NCBI GenBank assembly: GCA_964566795.1 | Contig: CAZMIU010000002.1 | Location: 7,965 to 71,964 of the forward strand | From: an uncultured Candidatus Saccharibacteria bacterium | GTDB taxonomy: Bacteria; Patescibacteriota; Minisyncoccia; Phycocordibacterales; SBAW01 | Direction: 5' to 3' | DNA: 64,000 nucleotides | Part shown: positions 25,876 to 45,528 of the stretch, in pieces | Numbering within the stretch: position 1 is the stretch's first letter | Layout: every line of letters begins with the position of its first letter | Translations under genes and position numbers: made by a program | The notes under the pieces: generated by a model | The model's database searches: none | What the model saw: only the letters and a program-made list of their open reading frames with translations | Told to the model about the DNA's origin: nothing

Positions 25876-27861
25876 ATGAAAGCGGCCATATTAGAGACTA
25901 TTGACCAGCCCCTGGTTGTGGCCGAGGTCGGGTTAACCGAGCTCCAGTTTGGCCAGGTACTTATAAAGGTGCTCGTCTCGGGCATCTGCGGCTCGCAGCT
26001 TATGGAGATTGGCGGCCACAAGGGCAACGCCAAGTTTGTCCCGCATCTTATGGGCCACGAAGGCTGCGGCATTGTCGAGGAGGTGGGGCTCGGAGTCACC
26101 CGTGTTAAAAAGGGCGACAAAGTTATCATGCACTGGCGCAAGGGCGACGGTGTTGAGAGCGACTTCCCCGAGTACATTTACAACGGCAAGCGCATTAAGA
26201 GCGGCAAGGTCACCACCTTTAGCGAGTACTCTATCGTGTCAGAAAACCGTGTCACGCCCGTGCCGCATGACACACCCGAGGAGTTGTGTGCACTCTTGGG
26301 CTGCAGCCTCTCCACAGCGCTTGGCACTATTAATGACGAGGCAGAGGTAAAGTTTGGCGAGAGTGTGATGATTGTTGGCGCCGGCGGCTTGGGCATTAAC
26401 CTTATTAAGGCGGCCAAACTTGCCTCGGCGTACCCGGTCATCTCCCTAGACATACACGAGCACAAGCGCGCACTCGCGCTCTCGTTGGGTGCAGACCTTT
26501 TTATAAACGTGGCGACAGAGTCTCTGCAAGAGAAGCTGGCCGAGATCGGCCTTAAAGACGTAGATGTGATCATTGAGTGCTCGGGCTCTAAAAAGGCCAT
26601 AGAGGCCACACTCCCGTACCTCTCAGGCACCGGGCGCTACATAATGGTGGGCCACCCCAAACCCGGCGAGAGTGTTGAGATGCTCCACGCGGGGCACATG
26701 TTTGGCGGCGAGGGCAAGACTATCAAGGCCACGCAGGGTGGCGGCTTTAACCCCAGCAGGCATATCGCGCGCTATGTGCGTTTGGCGCGCGAGGGCAACC
26801 TCAATATCGACGGCATCATCACGCACCACACCACGCTCGACAATATCAACAAAGCGATTGATCAGGTTCGCGCCGGAGAGGCGAGCCGCATCCTCATTAA
26901 GATGCAGCACGACAAAGACCTCTGGCCCGCCTACCGCCGCATGATGAAGTTGCGCGTTGCGAGCGAGGAGCTGGTTAAGCACTATCTGGAGAAGAAGGTG
27001 TTTAGCATGGTGCACTTCTATGTTGGGCAGGAGGCCGTGGCTACTGGTGTGTGCGACGCACTCACGGACGGCGACCAGGTGATGAGCTCGCACAGGCCGC
27101 ACGGGCACTATCTGGCGCGCGGGGGCAGCTTCCGCTCCCTCGCGGCGGAGTTGTTTGGCCGCGCCGCTGGCACGGCACACGGCAAAGGTGGCTCGATGCA
27201 TCAGGTGGCGCGCGAGGCCGGCTTTGCGGGCTCCTCGCCGCTCTTGGGCAGTGCCGTGCCGCTTGCAGCGGGTTTGGCGTTTGCACAAAAATATCAAAAC
27301 AAAGACGGCGTCTCAGTGGTGTTTTATGGTGATGGCGCCTCGGAGGAGGGCGTGGTGTACGAGACCTACAACCTCGCCGCACTCTACAAACTTCCCATGC
27401 TCTTTGTGCTCGAGAACAACAGCTGGTCTATCAACTCGCCGCTTACAAACCGCCGCGCAGAGAACTATGATAGTAAAAAAGTGGCAGAGGGCTTGGGGCT
27501 CAGATACATAGAGGCCAACGGCAACGACTATGAAGATGTGGCGGCCAAAGCAAACAAGCTCATTAAAGATATCCGCGCCGGTGCGGGGCCGGCACTCCTG
27601 GAGTGCAAGGTGTATCGCCACATGGCACACTCGACGCCGCTTATGGATGAGAAGAACCGCCTTTTGGACACGCTCGAGGAGCGCCTTAAAGAGGACCCAC
27701 TCAAGAAATTGCGCACCAAACTTGTGGCCGCAGGTGTAAGTGAGGCAGAGCTTACACACGAGGAGGAGGCTATGCGCGAGGCGGCACGCGCAGACATTGT
27801 ATGGGCTACCGAGCAGCCGTATCCGCCCAAAGAGGATCTAACCAAAGATGTCTATGCGTGA
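25876..27861 (+). CDS. fusion protein: Zn-dependent medium-chain alcohol dehydrogenase domain + TPP-dependent 2-oxoacid/acetoin dehydrogenase E1 alpha subunit
   Basis: N-terminal [13 protein letters not shown]...GHEGCG...IVGAGGLG (MDR/Zn-ADH, butanediol/threonine-dehydrogenase-like). C-terminal [11 protein letters not shown]...[36 protein letters not shown] (E1-alpha TPP-binding). Confidence 0.8.
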
Positions 27862-28885
27862 TCCGATTAAATACAGCGAGGCAATAGCAGAGGCAACCAG
27901 GCAGCTCCTCGAGAGCGACCCGCGCGTGTTTGTGCTGGGGCTTGGTGTACCGCAGGGTACGGGCGCTGTGGGCTCGCTCGCGGGCGCATTCCCAACCCGC
28001 ATTATAGACACGCCGACAAGCGAGGCTGCACTTACCGGCATGGCAGTGGGTGCGTCTATCGCAGGGCTAAGGCCCATAGTATTTCATGACCGGGTGGAGT
28101 TTAGTTTGCTCGCATCGGATCAGATGTTTACGCAGGCCGCCAAGTGGCGCTACATGTTTGCTGGCGAGGGCGGCTCGGCACCCATTACATTGCGCATCAT
28201 GATAGGCCGGCAGTGGGGCAATGGGCCGCAGCACTCGCAGGCTCTCTATGGCATGTTTGGCTCGGTTACCGGTTTGCGCGTTGTTATCCCATCGTCTCCT
28301 TATATGATGAAGGGCCTATTGGCTGCTGCGGTAAAGGCAGATGACCCGGTGGTGGTGCTCGAACCCCGCTGGCTCTACAACATAAAGGAGGATGTGCCCG
28401 AGGAGTTGTACGAGCTGCCCTTAGATAAAGCGCGTGTGGTTAAAGAGGGTAGCGCGGTAACGGTTGTGGCCTATGGTGACGCTCTTTTGGCAGCGCGCGA
28501 GGCCCTGGCGCTTATGGGCGAGCACGCCGCTGGTGTAGAGCTTATTGATTTGGTGTCACTTAAACCTATTGACCACGCGACTATACACGCCTCTATAAAA
28601 AAGACAGGCAAGCTTATAACCGTGGACACCACCTCGGCTGCGTTTAGTATCGGCTCGGAGATTATTGGTATGGCGGCACAACATCGGGTTGGGTTTACGC
28701 ACGCACCACGCGCGGTGGCAGCACCCGATGTGCCGGTGCCTACAACACCCGCCTTGGCAGAGTATTGGTACCCGACCAAGGTAGATGTTGCCAACGCGAT
28801 ACTCGAGATGCTCGGGGCCCCAAAAATAGAGAAAGAGCTCACGTTTGAGGAGCTCCACATGGCCCCCACCATAACCCTGGAGTAA
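27848..28885 (+). CDS. TPP-dependent dehydrogenase E1 beta subunit (transketolase-like pyrimidine-binding and C-terminal domains)
   Basis: 345 aa. RVFVLGLGV...TPTSEAALTGMAVGASIAGLRPIV...VVLEPRWLY motifs typical of PDH/acetoin-DH E1-beta. Overlaps the alpha-fusion gene by 14 nt. Confidence 0.85.
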   Translation: MSMRDPIKYSEAIAEATRQLLESDPRVFVLGLGVPQGTGAVGSLAGAFPTRIIDTPTSEAALTGMAVGASIAGLRPIVFHDRVEFSLLASDQMFTQAAKWRYMFAGEGGSAPITLRIMIGRQWGNGPQHSQALYGMFGSVTGLRVVIPSSPYMMKGLLAAAVKADDPVVVLEPRWLYNIKEDVPEELYELPLDKARVVKEGSAVTVVAYGDALLAAREALALMGEHAAGVELIDLVSLKPIDHATIHASIKKTGKLITVDTTSAAFSIGSEIIGMAAQHRVGFTHAPRAVAAPDVPVPTTPALAEYWYPTKVDVANAILEMLGAPKIEKELTFEELHMAPTITLE

Positions 28886-28966: not shown

Positions 28967-29758
28967 ATGGCTCTCACTATCATGTCGCTTAATGTTGGCC
29001 GGCTTTTGCAGGACCGCACAACTGCATATCTTGAGGCTCTCAATGACGAGAGAGATGCGCCTGACGTGATGTGCATCCAGGATCTGCCCTTTGATGGGTT
29101 GCCGCTTTTGGAGCGCTGGCCGCATGTGACCTTCGCTCCGATGACCAATCACTACATCAACGGTGAGCGTGCTGTGGTGGGTATCGCGATCGCGTCGCGG
29201 TACTTTATGACCGGCATCAAGCACTACACCACGTGGGGTGATGGCTTACTTAAGGATCTCCGTGGGATTAACGAGCATAATCAGCGACATCTCGGCGCTG
29301 AGAGCGACAAGCTCGTCGAGATGACCGAGGACAGAGTGCTTATCTGCGCCCGCGTCACCAAGGACAGAGAGTACGATATCGCCACGACTCACGGCATGTG
29401 GGTTCGCGATGGTGTCGTAAATGACGTGCAACGCAGCTCGACCGCCAAACTTGTGGGTTACTTACGGCACGAAGGGTACGCCCGCAACGGTCTTGTGTTT
29501 GCCGCGGACATGAATATGTCGCACGGCGGCGAGATCTACAACATGCTCACCGGCGTCATGAAAGACTGCATGCCGGCGGACATCGAGACCACGCTCGACC
29601 CTGACCATCCGTACTCCAAGCGCGGTGGCAAGGTTGTGACCGACTGCATCATGACTCACCCGGCGCCGCGCTCTGACCCGTATCGCGTAAGCGATGTGGG
29701 CCTGGTCGCCGGTGTCAGTGACCACCAAGCCCTTATTGCCACTGTCAGCAAGGACTGA
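28967..29758 (+). CDS. endonuclease/exonuclease/phosphatase (EEP) family protein
   Basis: N-terminal SLNVGRL and C-terminal SDHQAL catalytic His motif. Strong AGGAGG Shine-Dalgarno upstream, unlike most neighbours. Followed by an intrinsic terminator. Confidence 0.6.
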   Translation: MALTIMSLNVGRLLQDRTTAYLEALNDERDAPDVMCIQDLPFDGLPLLERWPHVTFAPMTNHYINGERAVVGIAIASRYFMTGIKHYTTWGDGLLKDLRGINEHNQRHLGAESDKLVEMTEDRVLICARVTKDREYDIATTHGMWVRDGVVNDVQRSSTAKLVGYLRHEGYARNGLVFAADMNMSHGGEIYNMLTGVMKDCMPADIETTLDPDHPYSKRGGKVVTDCIMTHPAPRSDPYRVSDVGLVAGVSDHQALIATVSKD

Positions 29759-29768: not shown

Positions 29769-29800
29769 CTCTCCGGCACACGCCGGGGAGTTTTCTTTTT
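29769..29800 (+). terminator. rho-independent terminator (9-bp GC stem ctccggc-acac-gccgggag followed by ttttcttttt)
   Basis: Hairpin plus T-run immediately after the EEP gene stop. Confidence 0.6.
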
Positions 29801-29827: not shown

Positions 29828-30832
29828 ATGCAGGAGCGCACAATACACAAAGCGGTTACGTTTCGCGCTTCATCAATTGGAGACGCTTTGATGGCTCTCT
29901 ACCTTTTTCAAAATATTAGGAAGGCTAATCCGGAGGCTAAGTGTGCGCTGGTGGTTGCGGGGCGCGGCGCGATGGTTAAAAACCTTTTGCTCGCATACCC
30001 GTGGCTTGAGGTGATTGAGGCCAATCGTAAACGCCCCAAAGCAGTCCTACATTTGCTCAATTCGTATTGGCTCGCAGACATAGTCACTACGCCCTACACT
30101 GCGGGCACGGTGGGGCTGTTTACCAAACTCATGGCGCGCTTTATCGGGCGCAGCCCAGGAGTGATTGGGTTTATCGACAAGTCATCCTGGTCAAAATATT
30201 TTTACGACCATTTAGTGCCCATCTGGGGCCGCGGTACTGCGCCCCGCTTGGCAGAGCAAGCCGCGCTTAAGGCCGCAGGTGTGCCAGTGGGCCAGGAATA
30301 TTTTGAGTATGAGTTTGTGCCGCAGCCGCAGGTGTTTGAGAGGTTGGGGGTAAAGGCGGGGGAGTATATAGTGGTGCACCTCTTTGCCGGCTCACAAACC
30401 CGTGGGTTAGACTCAGAGCACCAACAACAGTTGATTGATGCACTTGTACAAGAGTTCTCAGGCATACAACTCGTCTTTACCGGAACCGACCACGACCACG
30501 GGTTTATAAAAAAGTTAACGCTGCCGGAGCGCACGGTACTTGCCTCCACATCCGTGCAAGAGATGGCGCAGCTGCTTAAGTCGGCCAAAGGAGTGGTCTC
30601 GGTGGGCACGGGCCCGTCGCACATGGCCTCTATCATGCGGGTGCCCACGGTGGTGATCTGCGTGTGCCATGGTGTGCCTTGGTGTGATGAAACGCAGTAT
30701 GGCAACGCACCCGTCAAAGTATTTGCCCGCCCAGACCTGTGCCCGCAGGGCCACAACGCAGAAGGATACGCGCGCTGCATGAACGGGCTTGATATGCACG
30801 AAGTGGCCCGCACTGCAAAGTTCCTTTTTTAG
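29828..30832 (+). CDS. glycosyltransferase family 9 (heptosyltransferase-like)
   Basis: N-terminal FRASSIGDALMALYLFQNIRKANPEAK resembles the RfaC/RfaF/RfaQ ADP-heptose:LPS heptosyltransferase signature. GT-B architecture. 334 aa. Confidence 0.65.
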   Translation: MQERTIHKAVTFRASSIGDALMALYLFQNIRKANPEAKCALVVAGRGAMVKNLLLAYPWLEVIEANRKRPKAVLHLLNSYWLADIVTTPYTAGTVGLFTKLMARFIGRSPGVIGFIDKSSWSKYFYDHLVPIWGRGTAPRLAEQAALKAAGVPVGQEYFEYEFVPQPQVFERLGVKAGEYIVVHLFAGSQTRGLDSEHQQQLIDALVQEFSGIQLVFTGTDHDHGFIKKLTLPERTVLASTSVQEMAQLLKSAKGVVSVGTGPSHMASIMRVPTVVICVCHGVPWCDETQYGNAPVKVFARPDLCPQGHNAEGYARCMNGLDMHEVARTAKFLF

Positions 30833-30894: not shown

Positions 30895-32223
30895 ATGGCT
30901 AAAAACTCCAAGAACAAGGTTGCATACGTGGGCATGAGCGCCGACCTCGTGCACCCCGGACATCTCAACATTATTAAAGAGGCGGCAAAGCTCGGTGAGG
31001 TCGTGGTGGGCGTACTTACAGACGAGGCCATCGCGTCATACAAGCGCCTGCCGTACATGAGCTACGAGCAGCGCAAGGCGATCGTCGAGAACATTAAAGG
31101 TGTTTCGCGCGTCATCCCGCAAAAGACGCTCGACTACCGCCCCAACCTAAAGAGCCTCAAACCCGACTTTGTCGTACACGGCGACGACTGGAAGTATGGC
31201 GTACAGCAGGAGACGCGCCAACAGGTAATAGACACACTCGCCAAGTGGGGTGGCAAGCTTGTGGAGCCCGCTTACACCAAAAATATTTCCTCCACAGCGC
31301 TCCATAGCGCGCTTAAAGAGGTGGGTACCACGCCAGACCTGCGTCTTAAGCGCCTGCGCCGTTTGCTTGGCGCGAAGTCGCTGGTGCGCGGCATCGAGGT
31401 GCACAACGGCATCACCGGCCTCATTGTCGAGCACGTGTCTGTTAATCGCGAGAATAAAAAAGAGGAGTTTGATTTTATGTGGCTCTCGAGCCTCACCGAC
31501 TCCACCGCGCGCGGCAAGCCGGACACCGAGCTTGTAGACTCTACCACCCGCCTCACGACAATCCACGACGTGCTCGAGGTAAGTACCAAACCATTGGTAT
31601 ATGACGGCGACACCGGCGGGCAGACAGAGCACTTTCCGTATATGGTGCGCACTCTGGAGCGCCTTGGTGTCTCTGCAGTCATTATTGAGGACAAGCAGGG
31701 CCTCAAGAAAAACTCTCTCTTTGGCACTGCGGTAAAGCAGGAGATGGCCGACCCTAAAGCTTTTGCCGAGAAAATTAAGGCGGGCAAAAAAGCGCAGGTC
31801 ACCTCAGACTTTATGATCATTGCGCGTCTTGAGAGCATGATTGCGGGCAAGGGAGTTAAGGACGCACTCAAGCGCGCGCAGATGTATATAGACGCGGGTG
31901 CAGACGGCATCATGGTCCACAGCAAGGAGAAGGACCCCAAGGAGGTCTTGGAGTTCTGCCGCGAGTTTAAGAAGTTTAAAAAGAAGGTACCCCTGGTTGC
32001 CGTGCCCTCTACCTACCACACCATAACCGAGGAGGAGCTTGTTAAGGCCGGCGTCTCTATAGTCATTTACGCCAACCATCTCCTGCGCAGTGCCTATCCG
32101 GCTATGCTCAAGACTGCCGAGACTATCCTCAACCACGGCCGCGCCACCGAGGCACAGGAGCTGTGCATGCCAATCTCCGAGATTCTCACGCTCATAGACC
32201 GCAAAGGCAATGGTGCATCCTAA
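30895..32223 (+). CDS. ppm: bifunctional cytidylyltransferase (HxGH nucleotidyltransferase) + phosphoenolpyruvate mutase, Fom1-like
   Basis: N-terminal [19 protein letters not shown] (HxGH motif, CCT/TagD-like cytidylyltransferase). C-terminal [11 protein letters not shown] and the isocitrate-lyase/PEP-mutase fold (PEP mutase EDK motif). This architecture matches fosfomycin Fom1 (CyTase-PEP mutase). Confidence 0.8.
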
Positions 32224-33310
32224 AGCATTTATAGACTCGCTTAGTGCCGCGGGCGTCGACTACTTTGTGGGCGTGCCAGACTCGCTGCTTAAGGACGTAC
32301 TCTCCTACATTGATGAGGTGGTGCCGTGCGAGCGTCATATTATTGCGGCTAACGAGGGCAACGCGATAGGTATTGCCACAGGCTATAACCTTGCCACAGG
32401 TAAGGTGCCGTGCGTGTACCTGCAAAACTCAGGGCTGGGCAATGCAGTTAACCCGCTCGCCTCGCTCGCAGACCAAGAGGTGTACTCAATCCCGATGCTG
32501 CTTGTGATTGGCTGGCGCGGCGAGCCCGATACGCACGATGAGCCCCAGCACAAAAAGCAGGGTCGCATCACGCCGGCGCTCCTTGATACGCTCGAGATCC
32601 CGTACACCACCGACCTTGCCAAGGTGGGGGAGATGGTCGAGTTTGCGGTTAAGGATAGTTCGCCCGTGGCACTGTTGGTACAGGCCGGCAGCTTTGAGGC
32701 GTACAAGGGCAAGGTGCCGACCTCGCTCCTTAGTTGTACGCGCGAGGCCGCAATAGAGGAGATTGTCGCGGCTATAGAGCCCAGTGCCATTGTGGTGAGC
32801 ACCACCGGCAAGATATCGCGCGAGCTCTACGAGGTGCGCGGGCGCCGCGGCGAGAGTATGCGCGACTTTTTGACCGTGGGCTCGATGGGCCACGCCAACC
32901 AGATTGCGCTTGGCATTGCCACGCAAAAGCCAGACAGGCCGGTGTACTGCATAGACGGCGACGGCGCCACGCTCATGCACCTGGGCGGGCTCGCCACCGT
33001 AGGCTGGGTCGCACCCAAAAACTACAAGCACATTGTGCTTAACAACTTGGCGCACGAGTCGGTGGGCGGGCAACCCTCTGCCGCGGGTGTAGCCAACATC
33101 CCTGCTGCAGCCCAAGCACTTGGTTATGTGTCGGCCACAAGTGTCGACACCAAAGAGGCTATCGCGCCTGCCGTAAAGGCGATGGGCGAGGGCCCCGCAT
33201 TTTTGGAAATTAAGGTGAACCTGGAGTCGCGCAAAGATCTTGTGCGCCCCAAAGAGACACCGCTTGAGAATAAGCAGGCATTTAAGGAGTATCTCGATGG
33301 CACAAACTAG
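32210..33310 (+). CDS. ppd: phosphonopyruvate decarboxylase (TPP-dependent)
   Basis: 366 aa. Split TPP-enzyme layout with [19 protein letters not shown]-binding motif. Lies immediately downstream of the PEP mutase, as in all C-P biosynthetic clusters. Confidence 0.8.
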
Positions 33311-34286
33311 CTACATAGGAGAGGGTACATTGCACAAGATTACCGACATCGTGCGCGAGCTTGGTGTGCACAAAGTACTGCTTGTCGCGGGTGCGCACTC
33401 CTACGCGGCCTCCGGTGCTAAGGCATATCTTGATGAGGCGCTTAAGGATGTAGAGGTGAGGATGTACAGCGACTTCCATGCTGTCTTGGAGGACGAGGAT
33501 GTACAAAAGGGCATCGCGGTGCAAAACGAGTTCAAGCCCGACATTGTAGTGGCCGTTGGTGGCGGGCATGTGATGGACGCAGGCAAGGCTATTAACTACT
33601 ACGCAACGCGTGTGCCGGTTGTGGCGGTGCCCACTACCGCAGGCTCGGGGGCAGAGGCCACACCGTTTGCCGTCATTTATAAAAACGGCATTAAGACCTC
33701 GCTTGAGGGCCCTGAGGTGTTGCCCGCCTATGCTACTGTTGACCCTGCTTTAAACAATGCGCCGCGTGGTGTGATGCTCTCGGCTGGGCTTGATGCCTTG
33801 TGCCAGGCGATAGAGTCTTGTTGGGCGCGCGGCGGCAGTGATGAGTCACGCGAGTATGCCACGCAGGCGCTCAAGCTTGGTTGGCCCGCTTTAGAGAAGG
33901 CGCTCATTGGAGACAAAGACGCACGCGCCGACATGAGCATCGCTGCGCATCTGGCGGGCAAGGCTATAGCGATCTCTAAAACCACCGCATGCCACGCACT
34001 GTCCTACGGGCTTACCTACAAGTTTGGCGTGCCGCATGGTTTGGCGGTGGCACTTACAATGCCCGCTGTGATGCGCCACAATGCTGTAGCCTTGCCGCAG
34101 GGCATTACGCCCGAGGCGTTTGAGGATCTACTAAAACGCACAGAGGCACCAACCCTTAAGAGTTTTGGTGTAACACCCGAGGCTGTCGATGTGCTTGCAG
34201 GAGAGGTAGACCCGGAGCGCCTGAGCAACAACCCCAAGCCCCTGACGAAAGAGGATATTATTGCTATATATACGAGTGTTATCTAA
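33297..34286 (+). CDS. iron-containing alcohol dehydrogenase, candidate phosphonoacetaldehyde reductase (FomC/PhpC-like) producing 2-hydroxyethylphosphonate
   Basis: VAVGGGHVMDAGKA and downstream His motifs of the Fe-ADH family. Genomic context lies after ppm and ppd. Confidence 0.7.
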   Translation: MAQTSYIGEGTLHKITDIVRELGVHKVLLVAGAHSYAASGAKAYLDEALKDVEVRMYSDFHAVLEDEDVQKGIAVQNEFKPDIVVAVGGGHVMDAGKAINYYATRVPVVAVPTTAGSGAEATPFAVIYKNGIKTSLEGPEVLPAYATVDPALNNAPRGVMLSAGLDALCQAIESCWARGGSDESREYATQALKLGWPALEKALIGDKDARADMSIAAHLAGKAIAISKTTACHALSYGLTYKFGVPHGLAVALTMPAVMRHNAVALPQGITPEAFEDLLKRTEAPTLKSFGVTPEAVDVLAGEVDPERLSNNPKPLTKEDIIAIYTSVI

Positions 34287-34290
34287 CTGT

Positions 34291-35109
34291 ATGGAATCTA
34301 TTAAGGACCTGCGCGAGCGCCTCCAAAAAAACCAGCTGGGCCACCCCATATTGCAACGCGTGCTGTCTATCTATATAACGCGCGCCATCTTGGCTACTAG
34401 TATTACTGCCAACCAGGTAACGGCTGTGATGCTCCTGGTCGGTCTGGCGAGCGCCATCCCGCTCTTTATGGGCTATATCTGGACCGGCCTCGCGCTCTCG
34501 TACTTGTGCATCTTGCTCGACGCCTCTGACGGAGAGGTGGCACGCTACCGCAAGTCCTACTCGCTCAAGGGCATTTACCTAGACCTGATCAACCATCTGG
34601 CGATACAGGCATGGTTTTTCCTGGGGCTGGGCTACGCTATCGCGCAGTATCAGAGTGGGTACATGTACACCGTAGTACTTGTGGCCGCTATGGTGGGTGC
34701 GCTCTCGTTCCCGCTCAGGCGCGCCAACGGCGACCTGCACCGCGAGATATATGTGCACCACTACACCTCGCACCCCGAGCGCTTTACCTTGCCGCATATC
34801 CCACACAAAGAAGAGGGCAAGGAGGAGGCTAAACCGCGTCTGGGTCTTGTGGGGTTAATCAAAAAAGCAATCTACTACAGCGAGTACCATGCGATTATGC
34901 TTGTCATACTTGTACTGGCACTCCTTCTGGAGATGGCGCTCAACCTTGTAACGCACCCGATTGTGGCATGGCTCATTATTATCTACGCTGCCGTGTCCTG
35001 CCTCTACCTTATTAAAGAAATAGTCCAGGGCTATAAAGACATGGAGCGCCGCGTTGCAGACACTGATGCAAGGCTAAAGGCTACCTACCTCCATGGACCG
35101 CAAGGATAA
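34291..35109 (+). CDS. CDP-alcohol phosphatidyltransferase-family membrane enzyme
   Basis: DASDGEVARYRKSYSLKGIYLDLINH corresponds to DG-x2-AR-x8-G-x3-D-x3-(D to H). Multiple TM helices. Confidence 0.6.
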   Translation: MESIKDLRERLQKNQLGHPILQRVLSIYITRAILATSITANQVTAVMLLVGLASAIPLFMGYIWTGLALSYLCILLDASDGEVARYRKSYSLKGIYLDLINHLAIQAWFFLGLGYAIAQYQSGYMYTVVLVAAMVGALSFPLRRANGDLHREIYVHHYTSHPERFTLPHIPHKEEGKEEAKPRLGLVGLIKKAIYYSEYHAIMLVILVLALLLEMALNLVTHPIVAWLIIIYAAVSCLYLIKEIVQGYKDMERRVADTDARLKATYLHGPQG

Positions 35110-37486
35110 CTACCTGCTGTTTGTATACGAAGCGGCGCAGATACCCGCGCTCTTGGAGCGTATGGCGGGCGGGGAGTGTACGGTTGTGGCACTCGACCGC
35201 GAGGTGGAGCTCGACTTGGATAAGGCGGGCGTTGCCTACACCTCAATTACGACTATTGCCAAGGCTCCCATAGATAACCGCGAGGTTGTGGAGTGGACGC
35301 GCCGTCTGGCGCTCTGGTACAAAGCGCCGGAGGTTTCTTTTTTAAACCACGACGGCATTCTTTTAGGCGAGCAGTACGAGGTGGCAACGCTCTACTACCT
35401 GCAGGCCTGCGTGTACTACATGGCACTCATGCAGGGCGCGCTCGCGCATTTCTCCGACATTAAGAAGGTAGTGATACCTGCGACATATTTGCAGGTGCCA
35501 CCCACCGCCGACCCAACCGCGCGGCATAAAGAAAACTTGCCCGTGGATACGCTGAGGCTTGTGGCGGCACATATGGGGCGCGTGTGTGAGGTGTTAGAGG
35601 CACCGTTTGCTGAAGTGGCCAAGAGCCGTGCCGCTGCCATACGCCGCAGTATCAGCGCCGCGGTAGTGCATATAGTATTTGCGGTACTCAACAGTGTCAT
35701 GGCACAGAGAACGGGCCAGAAGCCCGTGCGCCTCTTTGCTACAGACCCATGGGCGCGCATCGAGCCTTTTGTTAAAGATATGAACGATATCGAGCTTGTG
35801 ATGAGCCGGCGCGCAGAGGCACGGCCTATGGGTGTGGGGGCTATATGGCGCACGCGTGCACGCTTCCACCACAGGCTCGACTTTGCCGACCGCACACTGG
35901 CAAAGAAAGTCGCAGAGGCACTTGCCACACGCTGGCAGGCAGTGCGCGAGGCGCCTGCACTCTCCAAAGAGTTTACGTATCAGGGTGTATCGTTTTGGCC
36001 TATCGCACGGGGGATGTTTGACGACATTGTGGCGCGTGCAGAGGACGATGTGGCGACTATAGAAAGTACTAAGCGTATGTTTACAAAGTACGCGATAAAC
36101 GCTGTGCTCTTGTTTGCCTCCACCAAGGGGTACAACCTGGTGCTCGCGCGCGTGGCCGAGCAGATGGGCATACCATCTGTAGAGAATGAGCACGCCCTGG
36201 TAAACGACGACAAAACGGTAGTGCACTGCCGGCTTAACAGCACGTATTTGGCCTCGTATGGCCCGCTTATTAACGGCATGTATGAGTCGTGGGGTGTTGA
36301 GCCGTGGCGGCTCGTGTCTGTAGGCTCCCCGCGCTTTGATGAGCATGCCCGACCGCCCAAAGAAGAGCAGGTTGAGGCACTGCGCAAGAAACTTAATCTG
36401 CCCCAGGATAAACCGGTGCTCTTGTACGGCATGCAGTTCCCGTATCTCTCGCTGGAGTACGGCAACTTTACGAGCAAGGAGGTGTGGGACATTATGCGTG
36501 ACACCGCGGCTGTGCAAAAAGACCTGGAGCTCCATATAATTCTGCGACCGCGCCCGGGGCAGTGGCGTTTTAATTTTTATAACCGTCCAGAGACTCTGGC
36601 TCTGTTTGAGGACTACTCCATGGCCCAGTTTGATAGTCTTAAAAACCTCTTTGCGCTCAGCGACATCGTGCTCACAGGAGGCTCTACGGTTATCCTTGAG
36701 GCGCTACTCATGCACAAACCTGTTGTGGTGTACCTGCCGCACATGCTCGATAATGACTGGCGCCGCTTTGAGGAAGCGGGCGCAGTGCGCATTGCCCGCA
36801 CACCGGGGGAGCTGCATCAGCACCTCAGCGAGCTTATAAGTGCGGATGCGCGCGTGGCTCAGGTGGAGCGTGCAGACGCATTTGTTGAGAAAGAGTTTTT
36901 AAACGACGGGCAGGCAGCCAGGCGTATGGCAGCGCTCCTTCGCCGTGTCACCATGGGCACACTGCGCGGTACCCAGGTAGACCTCGAGCCGCTCTCTGAG
37001 GCACACGCGAGCGAAAAGTACGCCTCGTGGTTTAACAACAAAGAGACCACCAAGCACACGCGTCATGGTGCCCGCACCATGACACTTAAAGACGTTAAAG
37101 AGTATGCGGCAGCCGCGCACACAAACCCGCACGACGCTGTGTTTGCCATGAAGGCCAAAGACGGCACGCATATCGGCAACATCAGCCTTTTGCATATCAA
37201 CTACACAAAGGGTGAGGCCGAGTACGCTATCATGCTTGGTGAGACGGGTTTTGGCGGCAAAGGTATAGCCACTGAAGCGAGCCGTCTTTTACTTTCGTTT
37301 GGGTTTAATAAGCTGGGGCTCAGGCGCATATACTGCGGCACATCTGTCGGCAATGTGCCCATGCAACGTCTGGCCGAACGTACTGGTTTTACACAGACGG
37401 GTACTAAGTCCGGGGTCGAGTTCCGCCCCGGGGAGTATCACGAGGTGTTGGAGTACTCGCTTGAGAGTGCCCACTTTATATCATGA
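35093..37486 (+). CDS. TagB/TagF-like CDP-alcohol glycerophosphotransferase-family domain fused to a C-terminal GNAT N-acetyltransferase domain
   Basis: LFALSDIVLTGGSTVILEALLMHKPVVVYL resembles the TagF C-terminal motif. The final roughly 170 aa, NISLLHINYTKGEAEYAIMLGETGFGGKGIATEASRLLLSFGFNKLGLRRIY, is a clear GNAT fold. Confidence 0.55.
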   Translation: MDRKDNYLLFVYEAAQIPALLERMAGGECTVVALDREVELDLDKAGVAYTSITTIAKAPIDNREVVEWTRRLALWYKAPEVSFLNHDGILLGEQYEVATLYYLQACVYYMALMQGALAHFSDIKKVVIPATYLQVPPTADPTARHKENLPVDTLRLVAAHMGRVCEVLEAPFAEVAKSRAAAIRRSISAAVVHIVFAVLNSVMAQRTGQKPVRLFATDPWARIEPFVKDMNDIELVMSRRAEARPMGVGAIWRTRARFHHRLDFADRTLAKKVAEALATRWQAVREAPALSKEFTYQGVSFWPIARGMFDDIVARAEDDVATIESTKRMFTKYAINAVLLFASTKGYNLVLARVAEQMGIPSVENEHALVNDDKTVVHCRLNSTYLASYGPLINGMYESWGVEPWRLVSVGSPRFDEHARPPKEEQVEALRKKLNLPQDKPVLLYGMQFPYLSLEYGNFTSKEVWDIMRDTAAVQKDLELHIILRPRPGQWRFNFYNRPETLALFEDYSMAQFDSLKNLFALSDIVLTGGSTVILEALLMHKPVVVYLPHMLDNDWRRFEEAGAVRIARTPGELHQHLSELISADARVAQVERADAFVEKEFLNDGQAARRMAALLRRVTMGTLRGTQVDLEPLSEAHASEKYASWFNNKETTKHTRHGARTMTLKDVKEYAAAAHTNPHDAVFAMKAKDGTHIGNISLLHINYTKGEAEYAIMLGETGFGGKGIATEASRLLLSFGFNKLGLRRIYCGTSVGNVPMQRLAERTGFTQTGTKSGVEFRPGEYHEVLEYSLESAHFIS

Positions 37487-38595
37487 ATTACTGCACACGC
37501 TGCGTACAACCGGACACCCGCCCCAACATCCGCTTTGACAAAGAGGGTGTGTGCCCTGCGTGCAGATATATGGAGGGCCTGCCCTCTGTAGACTGGGACG
37601 CGCGCCAGAAAGTATTGCGTGAGCTTGTAGAAAAGACACAGGTTAACAATCACTCGGGCTACGACTGCCTTATTGGTGTGTCGGGCGGCAAAGACAGCAC
37701 ACGCCAGGCTATGTATGCGCGCGATGTGCTGGGGCTTAAGCCTCTTTTGGTGTGCTGCACGTATCCGCCGGAGCAGTTAACCGAGCGGGGTGCACATAAC
37801 CTCTCCAACCTGATCTCTTTAGGCTTTGACACCATCGTGGTGCACCCGGATCCGCAGGTCTGGAAGAAGCTTATGCGCCGCGGATTTTTGGAGCATGGCA
37901 ACTGGGCCAAGTCGACAGAGACAGCGCTCTACGCCACGATCCCGCGCCTTGGCATTGCCTATCAGGTACCTCTGGCGTTTTTGGGTGAGAACCCGGCCAC
38001 GCACTTTGGCGAGCTGGGCACGGGCTCCTTAACGTGGGATGCCAACCAGTTTAAGAACACCAACACGATCAAGGGCGGGCACTCCATATGGGTAGACAAA
38101 GATGTGTCTCTCAAACAATTGGTGCCGTATCAGTTCCCGACAGATGAGGAGATGGAGATGGCAAACATCCAGGTGGCGTACCTGGGCTACTTTATGAGCG
38201 ACTTTACCAAGTTTGATAACGGCAAGTTTGCCGTAGAGCATGGGCTTGATGTGCGCACCGACACGCCCGAGGAGCGCGGGGCGCTGCACCCGTTTGAGTC
38301 TCTGGATGAGGACTTTGTAATCGTCAACCAGATGATCAAGTATTTTAAGTTTGGCTTTGGCAAAGTGACAGATGAGGTGTGCGAGCTTATACGCTGGGGC
38401 CACATGACACGCGAGGAGGGCTTTGAGCTGGTAAGAAAGTATGACGGTAAGTGCTCGCCGGGCTATATCAAGCGCTTTTGTGACTACATCGATATAAGCG
38501 AGGAAAAGTTCTGGGAGGTTGCGGAGTCGTACCGCAATAAAGACCTGTTTGAGAACGTGGGAGGGGAGTGGAAGCTGAAATCTCTGTATGCCTAA
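37483..38595 (+). CDS. N-acetyl sugar amidotransferase (PseA/WbuX family; zinc ribbon + PP-loop ATP pyrophosphatase)
   Basis: CTRCV...CPAC zinc ribbon and canonical PP-loop SGGKDS. Confidence 0.8.
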   Translation: MNYCTRCVQPDTRPNIRFDKEGVCPACRYMEGLPSVDWDARQKVLRELVEKTQVNNHSGYDCLIGVSGGKDSTRQAMYARDVLGLKPLLVCCTYPPEQLTERGAHNLSNLISLGFDTIVVHPDPQVWKKLMRRGFLEHGNWAKSTETALYATIPRLGIAYQVPLAFLGENPATHFGELGTGSLTWDANQFKNTNTIKGGHSIWVDKDVSLKQLVPYQFPTDEEMEMANIQVAYLGYFMSDFTKFDNGKFAVEHGLDVRTDTPEERGALHPFESLDEDFVIVNQMIKYFKFGFGKVTDEVCELIRWGHMTREEGFELVRKYDGKCSPGYIKRFCDYIDISEEKFWEVAESYRNKDLFENVGGEWKLKSLYA

Positions 38596-39205
38596 TATAG
38601 ATGTATTGGTTATAGATTATGGCGTTGGCAATGTGACCTCGGTTACTAATGCGCTTGAGCGCCTGGGGTACCGCTACGCGGTCTCCTCTGACCCCACGGC
38701 GATTGCGCAGGCGCCCCGCTTTGTACTCCCGGGTGTGGGGGCGTTTGCTGAGGCGATGAAGAACCTACAGAGCCGCGGGCTTGTAGAGCATTTGCGCCGC
38801 GAGGTACTAGACAACAAAAAGCCGCTGCTTGGGATTTGTCTTGGCATGCAGGTATTGGCAGAGTCATCAAATGAAGGGGGCGAACACAAAGGCCTCGGAT
38901 TTATCCCGGGCAGGGTCACAAAGATTGAGGGTAGCGTGCGCGTGCCGCACGTGGGCTGGGAGGCGCTCGAGGTTGGCACAAAAGAGCCGCTGTTTGCACG
39001 CGTACCGGAGGGTGCGGAGTTTTACTTTGACCACAGCTACCACTTTGAGACCGCGCCGGAGTTTGTGGCGGCCACTGCCCCCTATGGCACAGGAATTGTG
39101 GCAGCTGTACAGAGCAACCACATATACGGTGTGCAGTTCCATCCGGAAAAAAGCCATCTCAGTGGCCTAAGGCTCATTAAAGGGTTTATGGAGCATCACG
39201 TATGA
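38588..39205 (+). CDS. HisH-like class I glutamine amidotransferase (WbuY-like)
   Basis: LGICLGMQVL catalytic Cys and C-terminal HxE (VQFHPE). Confidence 0.85.
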   Translation: MPNIDVLVIDYGVGNVTSVTNALERLGYRYAVSSDPTAIAQAPRFVLPGVGAFAEAMKNLQSRGLVEHLRREVLDNKKPLLGICLGMQVLAESSNEGGEHKGLGFIPGRVTKIEGSVRVPHVGWEALEVGTKEPLFARVPEGAEFYFDHSYHFETAPEFVAATAPYGTGIVAAVQSNHIYGVQFHPEKSHLSGLRLIKGFMEHHV

Positions 39206-40008
39206 GCAAGCGCATTATCGGATCGTTAATACTCAAAGGTGGCCACGTGGTGCAGAGCATCGGGTTTTCTAAGTACTTGCCCGTGGGCAGCCCGGAGGTT
39301 GCGGTGGAGTTTTTAAACAGCTGGGGCGTGGATGAGATAGTTGTGCTTGAGATTGAGGGTGGCGTTGACCTGCCCCTTGTGGAGCGCCTGGCCAAAAAGA
39401 GCATGGTGCCGCTTACCATAGGCGGCGGTATCACCACTATTGATGAGATGCGCGCTCTTATACACGGCGGCGCAGATAAAATATCTATTAACCGCGCTGC
39501 ACTCAATACCCCGGCGCTTATTACCGAGGCCGCCAGTGTGTTTGGCAACCAGTGCGTGGTTGTCTCTATAGATGTACACGCGGGCGAGGAGGACAAGGCA
39601 CTTGAGCACGCGAGGGAGTGTGCGCGGCTTGGCGCAGGTGAGATACTGCTGCGCTGTGTGGAGCGCGATGGTATGCGGCAGGGCATGGATGTGGCGCTTA
39701 TCAAACGCGTGGCTGACGCAGTGGATATACCGGTTATTGCCGCGGGTGGGTACGGGAGCGCCACGCACGCCAAAGAGGCTTTTAGTGCCGGTGCCGAGGC
39801 GGTGGCGATAGGCAACACGCTTCACTTTAGTGAGCACAGCGTTATCACCGTTAAGCAGCAGCTTAAGGCTATTGGGTTGCCCGTGAGGCTTGACACCTAT
39901 GCGACCTACGAAGGCTTTGAGTTTGATGAGCTGGGCAGGCCAGAAAAGCTTGATGACGCGCGCCTGCAAAAATTGCGCTTTGAGTATCACCCCCCAGAAA
40001 CGATATGA
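39202..40008 (+). CDS. HisF-like cyclase subunit (WbuZ-like)
   Basis: TIGGGITTIDE and AAGGYGS (beta/alpha)8 HisA/HisF motifs. Confidence 0.85.
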   Translation: MSKRIIGSLILKGGHVVQSIGFSKYLPVGSPEVAVEFLNSWGVDEIVVLEIEGGVDLPLVERLAKKSMVPLTIGGGITTIDEMRALIHGGADKISINRAALNTPALITEAASVFGNQCVVVSIDVHAGEEDKALEHARECARLGAGEILLRCVERDGMRQGMDVALIKRVADAVDIPVIAAGGYGSATHAKEAFSAGAEAVAIGNTLHFSEHSVITVKQQLKAIGLPVRLDTYATYEGFEFDELGRPEKLDDARLQKLRFEYHPPETI

Positions 40009-41210
40009 TTTTTTGTAAACGCTGCGTATATCCAGACAACCATCCGCTCGGCCTTGTTATAGACAAGGAGGGTGTATGCAGTGGCTGCAGGGTGCATGAG
40101 GAAAAGGCCACCCTCAACTGGGACGAGCGCTACAAAAAACTGGAGCGTCTTGTCGCCCTGTTTAAAAACACCACCGGCTCAAACTACGACTGCGTGGTGC
40201 CTGTCTCTGGTGCGCGCGACTCCTACTTTATTGTCGACACGGTGCTTAAGCTGGGGCTCAGGCCGCTTTTGGTGACCTACAACAGGCACTACAACACAGA
40301 GGTTGGGATTAGAAACTTGGCTTACCTGCGCACGCTCGCTGGAGTAGACCTCATGACCCAGACAGTTGACCCCGCTACCGTAAAAAAGATTACTCGCGCG
40401 ACGCTTAGGAAAAACGCCAGCATGCACTGGCATGTGCTCGCGGGGCAGAGCGTGTATCCGGTGCAGGTTGCGGTGCGCTTTAAGATCCCTCTCATTATCT
40501 GGGGCGCGCACCAAGGCCTCGACCAAGTAGGCATGTTTTCTCACACAGACGAGGTGGAGATGACCCGTAAGTATAGAAAAGACCACGACCTGATGGGCTA
40601 CGAGGCCGAGGATCTTGTGGGCGAGGAGGGCCTCACTGAGCGCGACCTGGGGCCATACATGTACCCGCACGACAAAGAGATAGAGAAGGTGGGCGTGCGC
40701 GGGATATATTTGGGCAACTACATCCCATGGGACACCAAGGCACAGCACGAGGCGATGATACAAAAATATGGCTACGAGACACGCGAGCAGACACGCACGT
40801 TTGATACCTACAACGATGTGGACTGCTTCCACTACTCAGACATCCACGACTATATAAAGTTTGCCAAATGGGGTTATGGCAAGGCGAGCGACCACGCGAG
40901 CCGCGAGATACGCTGGGGCCGGCTCATAAGAGAAGAGGGCATAGAGCTTGTAAAAAAGTATGAGCATGTTGAGCCAAAAACTCTACAGCTGTTTTTGGAT
41001 TGGCTGGGCATGAGCCACGAGGAGTTTACTCTGCTCATAGATAAACACCGGGGTACGTACGACAGCGTGGTCAACCACGCGGATGATGCAGGGGTCGACG
41101 CCGTGCGGCTAGGCAAAAGACAGGACTGCGAGTTTGTCCTGACACCCTCGCGCGCTAAAGGCCCCGACAAACAAACCTATACCCTTATTGGTCGCGGTTG
41201 GGTAGATTAG
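40005..41210 (+). CDS. second N-acetyl sugar amidotransferase paralog (PseA/WbuX family) with a variant PP-loop
   Basis: CKRCV...CSGC zinc ribbon. PP-loop reads VPVSGARDS instead of SGGKDS. Confidence 0.7.
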   Translation: MIFCKRCVYPDNHPLGLVIDKEGVCSGCRVHEEKATLNWDERYKKLERLVALFKNTTGSNYDCVVPVSGARDSYFIVDTVLKLGLRPLLVTYNRHYNTEVGIRNLAYLRTLAGVDLMTQTVDPATVKKITRATLRKNASMHWHVLAGQSVYPVQVAVRFKIPLIIWGAHQGLDQVGMFSHTDEVEMTRKYRKDHDLMGYEAEDLVGEEGLTERDLGPYMYPHDKEIEKVGVRGIYLGNYIPWDTKAQHEAMIQKYGYETREQTRTFDTYNDVDCFHYSDIHDYIKFAKWGYGKASDHASREIRWGRLIREEGIELVKKYEHVEPKTLQLFLDWLGMSHEEFTLLIDKHRGTYDSVVNHADDAGVDAVRLGKRQDCEFVLTPSRAKGPDKQTYTLIGRGWVD

Positions 41211-41301
41211 TTCTCCCCAATTCATCCACAGAGTTATCCCATTGTTTTTTTTGTGCGATAAGCGGGACAATAGGTGTCTTATTAGTCATTTCATAAAAAC
41301 T

Positions 41302-42366
41302 ATGAAAAAGACACTTTATACAGCGCTGGTCTCCACTGTCGCGTTCTTCGCGTGGATGCCGGTAGTGTCGTTTGCGGCGAATTTCTTCACCGTAGACGAT
41401 GCGGGTAACGTGAGCATAGGAAATTCGTCTCCTCAACATGCGCTGGATGTGTCCGGTGCTATGTACAGCAGGTTGGCGACAACCTCCTCGTCGGTTAATT
41501 GGGATTCGGGCAATGTGCAGTCGATCACTCTAGCAAGTAGTCCGACTCTTGCTTTTTCCAATGCCCAGGCAGGCGGCGAATACACACTCATACTCGTACA
41601 AGATGGGACGGGAGGTAGGACAGTTATCTGGCCCGCATCAGTTGAGTGGTCGAATGGTTTGACGCCGACGTTGTCTACAGCGGCTGATGCAGTAGACATG
41701 GCACGCTTTACCTATGACGGGAGCAATTACATCGGGTCATTCGAAACGGAGTTTGGAGCAAGTGGGTTTGGATCCCAAGACTGGTTTGATGTTTATACCT
41801 CGGGCGATAGCTTGTCAGGGGGTGGTGCAGGATCCGGGTGGTCTTCAGATTGGAGTGGCGATTCGACGTTTGTACTTCAAACTACTACCACGGTTAATTC
41901 ATCTGGAAAAGCAGTAGGTCTAACTGGTGCCACTTCAGCAGAGGATGATGTAAGCCGCACATTTGCTGATGTAGAAAGCGGACACCTGTATTTTGCGATG
42001 CGCGCAAGTCAGGCGGTTGTAACAGATTACTGTAATGTAGAGTTATTTGATGGGTCGACATTTGGAACATATGTATCGTTTGGTCAAGGTCCAAATTCTA
42101 TTCGAGTTGCACACACAGGTGGGCCAACAACACTCTTGAATCCTTTCGTCGGTGGGACCTGGTATATATTCGACGTTAACTTCCTTTCGGCGACAACATT
42201 TAGAGTCCGTTACAAAGAAGCAGGCAGTTCGTGGAATGCGTACACTAGCCCCTTAACTTACTTAAATTCTGTCTCCTCGCCCAATAAAATAAACTTTGGG
42301 TGCAATACTGCGACAAATGGAACAGACTTCTATATTGATCAGTTGGGGATAACAAATATAGATTAA
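41302..42366 (+). CDS. secreted protein with phage-tail-fibre-like N-terminal motif and beta-sandwich (lectin-like) body, in a lower-GC island
   Basis: Signal peptide MKKTLYTALVSTVAFFAWMPVVSFA. DDAGNVSIGNSSPQHALDVSGAM matches the GNVGIGTxxPxxxLxVxG motif common in tail-fibre proteins. Gene GC is about 48% against about 60% in the flanks. Confidence 0.45.
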   Translation: MKKTLYTALVSTVAFFAWMPVVSFAANFFTVDDAGNVSIGNSSPQHALDVSGAMYSRLATTSSSVNWDSGNVQSITLASSPTLAFSNAQAGGEYTLILVQDGTGGRTVIWPASVEWSNGLTPTLSTAADAVDMARFTYDGSNYIGSFETEFGASGFGSQDWFDVYTSGDSLSGGGAGSGWSSDWSGDSTFVLQTTTTVNSSGKAVGLTGATSAEDDVSRTFADVESGHLYFAMRASQAVVTDYCNVELFDGSTFGTYVSFGQGPNSIRVAHTGGPTTLLNPFVGGTWYIFDVNFLSATTFRVRYKEAGSSWNAYTSPLTYLNSVSSPNKINFGCNTATNGTDFYIDQLGITNID

Positions 42367-42385
42367 GTAGCTCTTGTAAGCTAGA

Positions 42386-42420
42386 AGAAAAGAGCCTCGA
42401 AGGAGGCTCTTTTCTGTAAG
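42386..42420 (+). terminator. rho-independent terminator (13-bp stem agaaaagagcctc-gaag-gaggctcttttct)
   Basis: Near-perfect hairpin followed by T-rich tract directly after the 42366 stop. Confidence 0.6.
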
Positions 42421-42456
42421 TTTTAAAACATATGTTTAAGTGCTACAGTATTTCCG

Positions 42457-43281: not shown

Positions 43282-43285
43282 TTGT

Positions 43286-45521: not shown

Positions 45522-45528
45522 TGCCGGT

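Follow-up and report, generated by a model that had tools for sequence, protein, structure and literature searches.

What would a member of the Candidate Phyla Radiation (CPR; Patescibacteria) do with a nucleotide-activated phosphonate? The question is raised by five genes located at positions 30895–37486, on the + strand, of the 64,000-nt stretch of DNA analysed here (the window). They encode a cytidylyltransferase (CyTase) fused to a phosphoenolpyruvate (PEP) mutase (Ppm; gene g1), a phosphonopyruvate decarboxylase (Ppd; g2), an iron-dependent alcohol dehydrogenase (Fe-ADH; g3), a CDP-alcohol phosphotransferase (g4) and a TagF-like protein carrying a GNAT domain (g5). An earlier note on this DNA had read the five genes as a phosphonate module that hands CMP-activated 2-hydroxyethylphosphonate (HEP) to its downstream transferases. 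The comparison of about 130 related loci supports a different division: genes g1–g4 probably constitute a self-contained, co-transcribed HEP decoration cassette, placed in a variable slot of a pseudaminic acid (Pse)-like nonulosonic acid (NulO) glycan locus of Paceibacterota-type Patescibacteria; g4 would transfer HEP to the glycan, while g5 would be the CMP-NulO enzyme of the locus. The functional assignments of g1–g5 all rest on homology and gene context.

The first gene, g1 (30895–32223), contains two domains. The N-terminal domain (30895–31338) matched PF01467 (residues 15–136, E = 8e-17) and has the HxGH signature, as HPGH, at residue 20. The C-terminal domain (31342–32223) matched PF13714 (residues 155–412, E = 1.6e-54), and the protein scored 386.7 bits against the PEP mutase equivalog TIGR02320, above the cutoff of 319.55. 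The motif EDKxxxxxNS, the criterion that tells Ppm from isocitrate-lyase relatives (PMC6697681), was found at residue 265. The CyTase domain was 65.7% identical to that of Fom1 (5X3D) over all 137 aligned residues (E = 6.8e-61); the runner-up cytidylyltransferases, namely ethanolamine-phosphate cytidylyltransferase and TagD, gave E values ranging from about 1e-14 (best, 1.7e-14) to 1e-11. Among PEP mutases of known structure, the Ppm domain matched 5UNC (E = 3e-47) and 1M1B (E = 2e-39). The Fom1-like fusion proposed in the earlier note was thus borne out in both halves, that is, in the N-terminal CyTase match and in the Ppm motif. For proteins of different phyla, an identity of 66% between the CyTase domains of this CPR protein and of Fom1 from Streptomyces wedmorensis is strikingly high; the CyTase–Ppm gene may be under strong constraint or may have spread horizontally. 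The GC content of the cassette (0.55–0.58) is the same as that of its surroundings, and composition gave no sign of a recent transfer.

The decarboxylase g2 (32210–33310), with N- and C-terminal thiamine pyrophosphate domains, scored 439.9 bits against the phosphonopyruvate decarboxylase equivalog TIGR03297 (cutoff, 312.5), in agreement with its earlier description as Fom2-like. The ORF of g3 opens at 33240, but the likely start is the ATG at 33297 (gene, 33297–34286), which is preceded by AAGGAG and agrees with a 329-aa gene call on an identical metagenome contig. The g3 product matched PF00465 (E = 2e-35). ‘Phosphonoacetaldehyde reductase’ is the name of every homolog that has an informative one (in Nomurabacteria, Kaiserbacteria, Paceibacterota, Kiritimatiellia and Hodarchaeales); the family match and these names are in keeping with the proposed FomC/PhpC-like function, although the cutoff of the closest curated model was not reached (see below). 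Sulfoacetaldehyde reductase (6JKO/6JKP) was matched with an E value of 1e-27. In each of the cassette-bearing loci among the 48 from reference genomes described below, an Fe-ADH of the g3 type is located between Ppd and g4.

The CyTase domain of Fom1 is cited in PMC6697681 as the enzyme that converts CTP and HEP to CMP-HEP. Pfam scans covered the non-nested ORFs of 150 aa or more in the window, with two exceptions (four of the scanned ORFs had no match at all). No 2-aminoethylphosphonate (AEP) transaminase of the PF00266 type was found in the window, and AEP was ruled out as the product, the two DegT genes present being part of the sugar pathway. Nor did any scanned ORF match a Fom3- or Fom4-like gene (radical-SAM enzyme or cupin epoxidase), which upholds the earlier view that this is not an antibiotic pathway; that possibility was rejected since the window lacks tailoring genes. 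Given the homology to Fom1, Fom2 and PhpC, and since neither the transaminase nor Fom3 and Fom4 are present in the window, the assignment of CMP-HEP as the predicted product of g1–g3 is well supported.

The five ORFs are co-directional and mostly overlap, and the scores that identify them greatly exceed chance expectation. Coordinates and strand agreed with the earlier description of five consecutive overlapping genes, except at one junction: g1/g2 and g2/g3 overlap by 14 nt each (the latter with the ATG at 33297), g4/g5 by 17 nt, and g5 and the following gene by 4 nt, but g3 and g4 are separated by a 4-nt gap (with the g4 ATG at 34291). A terminator scan found no terminator-like signal between the cassette genes, including the g4–g5 junction. 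A strong terminator-like hairpin is present at 29769–29790, just 5′ of the gene for a GT9-like glycosyltransferase (29828–30832, + strand; PF01075) that forms the left border of the cassette slot. It was the only useful hairpin detected, promoter- and terminator-like signals in the window otherwise occurring at background counts; scans of the window for tRNAs and Rfam families found nothing.

The enzyme proposed to consume CMP-HEP is the product of g4 (34291–35109), a candidate CMP-HEP:acceptor 2-hydroxyethylphosphonyl transferase. Its ORF opens at 34261; the likely start, ATG 34291, gives a protein of 272 aa. Its assignment as a membrane enzyme of the CDP-alcohol family, already made in the earlier note, was supported by PF01066 and by its predicted fold: a Foldseek search with the AlphaFold2 model (pLDDT 93.7) returned CDP-alcohol phosphotransferases only, with a probability of 1.0, the top matches being AF2299, phosphatidylinositol-phosphate (PIP) synthase and IPCT-DIPPS. 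The active-site motif, DASDGEVAR-YRKSYSLK-G-IYL-D-LIN-H, corresponds exactly to DG-x2-AR-x8-G-x3-D-x3-H. It departs from the full signature of the family, D1xxD2GxxARx8Gx3D3x3D4, in that the fourth Asp is replaced by His102, which aligns with D4 of AF2299. Residues D77, D80, G81, E82, A84, R85, Y86, G94, D98 and H102 were invariant in 37 aligned homologs, with identities down to 22%. The His had been regarded as unusual, and the substitution is real; however, it was found in about 100 of the 110 motif-bearing g4 homologs and in 115 of 130 motif-bearing representatives from a library of 1.84 billion proteins. It is therefore the mark of a whole clade and not a peculiarity of the g4 of this window.

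The Ppm-linked subclade is small: the library contained 2368 relatives of g4 at E ≤ 1e-3, but a threshold of E ≤ 1e-30 left only 11 clusters. In a quick neighbour-joining tree of about 85 loci, computed without support values, the co-directional Ppm-linked g4 proteins formed one subclade, with the protein of locus L065 nested inside; its sister clade was larger, and there RtcB paralogs precede the g4-like genes. In locus L094 a distant member of the His clade (FIDEIFH) is divergently paired with a CyTase–Ppm–Ppd operon. Because two different gene arrangements join enzymes of the g4 type to a Fom1-type CyTase–Ppm, the putative role of g4 as the consumer of CMP-HEP is supported.

The limits of the cassette were examined in loci within reach of pattern-based scans. 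An alignment of the g5 family was used to gather 48 loci from species-representative genomes, which were scored by tblastn with all genes of the window; the counts that follow refer to this set only. Some contigs appear under different collections (L002 = L011 = L061; L003 = L013; L008 = L016). Upstream sequence of 5 kb or more was available for 38 g5 loci, of which six contained Ppm and 32 had neither Ppm nor a CyTase. Gene g4 was present in the same six loci and in no others, always between the Fe-ADH and g5. The g5 homolog, on the other hand, was accompanied by one or more NulO-pathway markers within 10 kb in all 32 loci with at least 8 kb of downstream sequence (NeuB in 26 of them). The concordance of Ppm and g4, together with the universal presence of NulO markers, therefore groups g4 with g1–g3, and g5 with the NulO locus. 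The proposal that CMP-HEP is handed to the downstream transferases thus holds in part: g4 is a probable consumer in a glycan context, but g5 stands apart from the phosphonate module.

The slot upstream of g5 differs between genomes. Locus L012 lacks Ppm, and its g5 homolog is 46% identical to that of the window, as close as those of cassette-bearing loci. Between its GT9 and g5 genes (6216–9970) lie genes for LicD, a LicC/IspD-like nucleotidyltransferase, a DUF711 protein and a methyltransferase, which looks like an alternative CMP-activated decoration cassette with its own activating enzyme and phosphotransferase. In L065 the g5 homolog is preceded by a CyTase–cupin gene, a GT4 gene, two RtcB paralogs and a g4-like gene, while in L007 and L019 the GT9 gene directly abuts the g5 homolog. 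The gene just upstream of g5 was inspected in 10 Ppm-free loci; it encoded a radical-SAM protein, a GT4, a sugar C-methyltransferase, a GDP-mannose dehydratase, an FkbM methyltransferase, a GT2 or a second TagF-like paralog, and in none of the 10 did it encode a CDP-alcohol-forming enzyme. Genes for B12-binding radical-SAM proteins were observed in L003 (1010–2842), some 4 kb ahead of the HEP cassette, and in the Ppm-free locus L018 (8640–10013), where the gene directly precedes g5. A further gene of the region, at 28967–29758 in the window, encodes a 263-aa protein with no Pfam match. It has homologs in L003 (5674–6375) and L025 (at about 8315); that of L003, 33% identical and directly upstream of the CyTase–Ppm gene, is annotated as Exo_endo_phos. 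The 263-aa protein may be a phosphodiesterase tied to these loci.

The product of g5 (35093–37486) has a TagF/TarL-like GT-B domain (35093–36985) followed by a C-terminal GNAT domain (36983–37486). The TagF-like protein fused to GNAT that the earlier note described was recovered by PF04464 (residues 371–614, E = 3e-8, above threshold) and PF13302 (residues 631–767, E = 5e-21, or 9e-22 in a second scan). A profile of g5 matched TarL (8VA1) with an E value of 4.5e-8, the sequence GSPRFD aligning with GVPRTD. A slightly better match than PF04464 was the NCBIfam model NF046086 (E = 4e-10), which describes the BFO_1060 family. BFO_1060, Tanf_01245 and TFUB4_00887 are TagB-like proteins encoded beside genes for CMP-Pse or CMP-legionaminic acid (Leg), and knock-out and complementation showed these Tannerella proteins to be needed for the addition of the Pse or Leg derivative to the S-layer O-glycan (PMC5420450). 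The GNAT domain of g5 weakly matched PseH (TIGR03585, E = 3e-5), which makes it a candidate PseH-type N-acetyltransferase of the NulO pathway; in L008 the GNAT is a separate gene directly after the g5 homolog, and the Pfam scans of the window ORFs found no further GNAT. Since no CMP-linked donor other than CMP-NulO is encoded throughout the loci of the family, and the window contains no other candidate CMP-sugar transferase, g5 is most likely a CMP-nonulosonate transferase, an assignment drawn from gene context and not specific to phosphonate.

The C-terminal fusions of the g5 family vary: the protein of the window and its close relatives end in a GNAT domain, other members in an APS-kinase-like domain (PF01583; P0156, P0162; L009 1225–3519). 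This hints that acetylation, or phosphorylation or sulfation, of the transferred sugar may be coupled to its transfer. In a Ppm-free NulO locus (L042, 7461–11839; also L049) there are two tandem TagF-like paralogs of 630 aa, with an FkbM methyltransferase between them.

We propose the following sequence of events. The Ppm domain of g1 would convert PEP to phosphonopyruvate, which Ppd would decarboxylate to phosphonoacetaldehyde, drawing the reaction forward. The PhpC-type reductase would then produce HEP, and the Fom1-type CyTase domain would convert it to CMP-HEP. These four steps are predicted from strong homology to characterised enzymes. In a fifth step, suggested by gene context, g4 would use CMP-HEP as donor of the hydroxyethylphosphonyl group, attach this group to a hydroxyl of a membrane-bound acceptor and release CMP; His102, in place of the fourth Asp, would presumably act as the general base. 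The acceptor would most likely be a lipid-linked oligosaccharide containing NulO, modified before its export by an ABC transporter and its transfer by a Wzy_C protein. Such a lipid-linked glycan is favoured as acceptor because g4 sits in a glycan operon and because a LicD alternative occupies the same slot in L012; a lipid acceptor is the main rival. The last step would lie outside the HEP module: the constant TagF-like GT-B protein g5, fused to a PseH-type acetyltransferase, would most likely transfer NulO from CMP-NulO, a role again suggested by its neighbours.

Several observations weigh against this scheme. The match of g4 to PF01066 barely passes (23.1 bits; threshold, 22), and the classical products of CDP-alcohol phosphotransferases are lipids. 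The score of g5 against NF046086 (39.4 bits; cutoff, 200) makes it a relative, not a member, of that family. TIGR03405, the best NCBIfam match of g3, was reached with 146 bits, below its cutoff of 424. This model represents a PhpC homolog; enzymes of the PhpC type diverge widely, and a biosynthetic role is assigned to those encoded in a cluster with pepM and ppd (PMC13576164). The acceptor of g4 is a candidate only, and for all five genes the roles are read from sequence similarity and from the neighbouring genes. Finally, wherever the cassette occurs it directly precedes g5; this holds even for L034, whose g5 is only 27% identical to that of the window. Direct coupling between g4 and g5, or the use of CMP-HEP by g5, is therefore possible, and a hand-off between the two proteins might place HEP on or beside the NulO residue.

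If g5 used CMP-HEP, g4 could act as primer and g5 as polymerase or decorator, and the product would be a teichoic-acid-like HEP polymer or a heavily HEP-substituted glycan, as suggested in the earlier note. Both families release CMP from donors of the CMP-P(O)(O−)-R type, and the 17-nt overlap of the two genes, the constant position of the cassette directly ahead of g5 in distant g5 clades (L034) and the match of g5 to the TarL polymerase (E = 4.5e-8) all fit this view. Still, it appears improbable: 32 of the 38 g5-family loci have neither Ppm nor g4, no supply of CDP-alcohol was found beside g5 in the Ppm-free loci checked, and the g5 homolog of L012, 46% identical, sits beside a LicD cassette. 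Moreover, g5 is tied to the sugar pathway by the fusions found in its family, to GNAT or APS kinase, and by the NulO genes that accompany it throughout, and no TagD/TarIJ, TagO/TagA-type or LytR–CpsA–Psr (LCP) genes were found among the scanned ORFs of the window; the teichoic-acid-like polymer of the earlier note is not supported. A stronger competitor, though still an unlikely one, is a phosphonolipid pathway in which g4 would load HEP, donated by CMP-HEP, onto a lipid alcohol such as diacylglycerol, much as the Burkholderiales_CDP-OH clusters are predicted to build phosphonolipids from CMP-AEP. Phospholipid synthesis is the classical role of PF01066 proteins, g4 is an integral membrane protein with PIP synthases among its best structural matches, and the AEP neighbourhoods that are most abundant, and for which phosphonolipid products are predicted, have CDP-alcohol phosphotransferase genes in their core (PMC8942020). 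However, g4 is embedded in, and translationally coupled within, a glycan operon, lipid-synthesis genes are not nearby, the best matches in NCBIfam and the PDB belong to the DIPP synthase/AF2299 group, which acts on soluble substrates, and a glycan-decorating LicD cassette takes the same slot in L012.

Two further possibilities concern the fate of HEP itself. It could be the acceptor of g4, as in a reaction of CDP-diacylglycerol with HEP to give phosphatidyl-HEP, or the substrate of g4 could be unrelated to phosphonate, CMP-HEP being used by another enzyme. The free hydroxyl of HEP does resemble that of glycerol-3-phosphate, and the link of the g4 sister clade to RtcB paralogs, not to Ppm, implies that the ancestral substrate of the family was not a phosphonate. 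Against this, a CyTase–Ppm fusion makes little sense unless the donor is CMP-HEP, g4 and Ppm are perfectly concordant in the g5 loci, a direct functional link is favoured by the divergent pairing seen independently in L094, and no other candidate phosphonyl transferase (LicD, or of the sulfatase/EptA type) was found in the window; we regard these possibilities as very unlikely. Hardly any credence can be given to a diffusible natural product, either fosfomycin-like or another small molecule derived from HEP. The Fom1/Fom2/FomC-like front end and the B12/radical-SAM gene about 4 kb upstream of the cassette in L003 would fit such a pathway, but the window lacks genes for Fom3, Fom4, HEPD, MpnS, nonribosomal peptide synthetases and ATP-grasp enzymes, the only PDB match of the L003 radical-SAM protein is AprD4, and the whole neighbourhood is devoted to glycan assembly and export. 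The decoration of a NulO glycan by a g1–g4 cassette thus remains the preferred reading.

Parts of this arrangement have precedents. The fosfomycin pathway of S. wedmorensis (Fom1, Fom2, FomC) has the same bifunctional CyTase–Ppm followed by Ppd and a PhpC-type reductase, and CMP-HEP is the expected product in both. The cassette differs in lacking the Fom3 methyltransferase and the Fom4 epoxidase and in its CPR host; CMP-HEP is a transient biosynthetic handle in fosfomycin synthesis, whereas here it is proposed to be a donor for surface decoration. The logic of transferring a CMP-activated phosphonate to a cell-surface glycan, and the fusion of a nucleotidyltransferase to Ppm, are shared with the Pnt pathways (Rice et al. 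2019, PMC6697681), but these use AEP, a LicC-type PntC (PF12804) and LicD-type transferases, whereas the cassette would use HEP, a PF01467 CyTase and a membrane transferase of the CDP-alcohol family. PF01467–Ppm fusions account for 23.6% of Ppm enzymes, and nucleotidyl activation is the published paradigm of phosphonate tailoring (PMC6697681); HEP-type neighbourhoods make up 8.5% in an inventory of complete genomes (PMC8942020). The Burkholderiales_CDP-OH AEP neighbourhoods, predicted to make group 1 phosphonolipids (PMC8942020), resemble the cassette in having a Ppm cluster with a CDP-alcohol phosphatidyltransferase as the presumed consumer of a CMP-phosphonate, but differ in their product (AEP or 1-hydroxy-AEP), their two PntCs and their lipid-synthesis context. 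In the phosphonoglycans of Stackebrandtia nassauensis and Glycomyces, as cited in PMC8942020, HEP is esterified to an extracellular glycan and the genes share a ppm–ppd–phpC core; these are actinobacterial exopolysaccharides with no reported link to nonulosonic acids, and the likeness drawn here is one of product and core genes.

Regarding g5, the Tannerella forsythia proteins Tanf_01245, TFUB4_00887 and BFO_1060 (PMC5420450) are likewise TagB/TagF-like GT-B proteins encoded beside CMP-NulO genes, and theirs is the NCBIfam model closest to the C-terminal half of g5. They are, however, about 445 aa long, as opposed to about 630 aa for g5, which has a large N-terminal extension and a fused GNAT. 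With the TagF/TarL polymerases g5 shares PF04464, the GT-B fold and the GxPRxD and S…E motifs aligned with TarL, but the g5 family is not accompanied by genes for CDP-glycerol or CDP-ribitol synthesis or by other teichoic machinery. The wall teichoic acid set (TagO/TagA/TagB priming, TagGH export, LCP ligase) was absent from the Pfam-scanned ORFs of the window, which encode a single fused ABC exporter and a Wzy_C protein instead. As for g4, it shares its fold and the D1xxD2GxxARx8Gx3D3 signature with AF2299, IPCT-DIPPS and PIP synthase, but has an invariant His for D4 and the additional conserved residues E82 and Y86 (DGEVARY), and no fused cytidylyltransferase domain.

The literature searched on phosphonates or nonulosonic acids together with Patescibacteria contained nothing relevant. 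In it we found no description of a HEP cassette in CPR bacteria, of its insertion in a NulO locus, of the His-variant clade as its partner or of the interchangeable slot. The earlier claim that no such system had been described in this lineage holds to that extent, although NCBI already names CPR homologs of g3 ‘phosphonoacetaldehyde reductase’, and CMP-phosphonate tailoring as a general logic is already in print (PMC6697681, PMC8942020).

The cassette is part of one long glycan locus that occupies the window from about 11 to 59 kb and includes genes for epimerases, glycosyltransferases (five GT4, one GT2 and one GT9), a methyltransferase, a deacetylase and a UbiA-family protein. Immediately downstream of g5, the Pse-like NulO pathway (37483–51801, + strand) comprises two WbuX genes, HisH/HisF, a GFO oxidoreductase, two DegT genes, a PseF-like CMP-NulO synthetase, a NeuB/PseI-like gene, a DUF218 gene and a PseB-like gene; the PseF-like and NeuB genes lie 8–10 kb from g5. 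Both WbuX copies scored above the cutoff, while PseB, PseC, PseF and PseI/NeuB were the best matches of their respective genes but with scores under the equivalog cutoffs. The WbuX-type N-acetyl sugar amidotransferases are paralogs (37483–38595 and 40005–41210) that flank HisH/HisF, which suggests two acetamidino groups or two different amidated sugars. The pathway is followed by a flippase-like ABC exporter with ABC_membrane and ABC_tran domains (51812–53575, + strand) and by a Wzy_C protein with TPR repeats, similar to O-antigen ligases and O-oligosaccharyltransferases (57415–59649, + strand; PF04932, E = 4e-21). Five ORFs of 331–643 aa (21145–22884, 41242–42366, 44526–45521, 46257–47312 and 55323–57254) had no Pfam match, and the second, third and fourth had no NCBIfam match either; one or more of the five may be the missing PseG-type hydrolase or further transferases.

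Upstream of the cassette, at 23923–28885, an acetyl-CoA-synthetase-like gene on the minus strand is followed by a gene for a Zn-alcohol-dehydrogenase domain fused to a thiamine pyrophosphate-dependent E1-alpha subunit, and by a separate E1-beta gene. This set points to an unusual processing of acyl or keto acids, possibly for the supply of an N-acyl group to the nonulosonic acid. Ahead of the glycan locus there are genes for a TrwB/TraG-like coupling protein and an IS200-like Y1 transposase (6921–9482), and an LTD+PKD surface protein is encoded at 9633–11057. The 5′ end of the window (189–3346) contains murA (on the minus strand), murB and a gene resembling that of glutamate racemase. Fosfomycin acts on MurA, but nothing was found that links these housekeeping genes to the cassette.

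In about 20 independent CPR loci, from metagenomes or genomes, the gene for a His-clade CDP-alcohol phosphotransferase directly follows one RtcB paralog or two (L005/L006 5279–10849; L065 4592–8355; L067, L068, L071–L073, L075–L080, L084–L086, L095, L096, L111 and L130). An RtcB paralog of L065 retains the GMP-accepting histidine of the HGAG motif and the metal-binding His motifs. RtcB chemistry leads to a GDP-linked phosphate, the type of donor used by the CDP-alcohol phosphotransferase family, and we know of no function that explains the pairing. A speculative extension, which we hold to be rather doubtful, is that the His-variant phosphotransferases could be a general family for the phospho- or phosphono-decoration of surface glycans in CPR and other uncultivated bacteria, fed with nucleotide-activated donors by interchangeable partners: a Fom1-type CyTase in the present case and, in the sister clade, RtcB paralogs repurposed from the guanylylation of RNA 3′-phosphates to the formation of a GMP-activated phosphate donor.

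The transfer of a CMP-activated phosphonate to a cell-surface molecule has been called still enigmatic (PMC6697681). The g4 clade, small, well delimited and tied to a Fom1-type CyTase–Ppm in two independent arrangements, is a concrete candidate for this transferase and is open to testing. Homologs of g3, g4 and g5 were almost all from Patescibacteria (Paceibacterota, Kaiserbacteria, Adlerbacteria, Yonathbacteria and Nomurabacteria), a group that lives attached to host cells and is represented almost solely by genome sequences. The slot upstream of g5, filled by a HEP, LicD or RtcB-type cassette depending on the genome, offers a natural experiment in surface-glycan diversification. These findings suggest that some CPR bacteria display a glycan with both a Pse-like nonulosonic acid and a hydrolysis-resistant phosphonate; if so, such a glycan would bear on host attachment, on the evasion of phages and of immune defences, and on environmental phosphonate pools.

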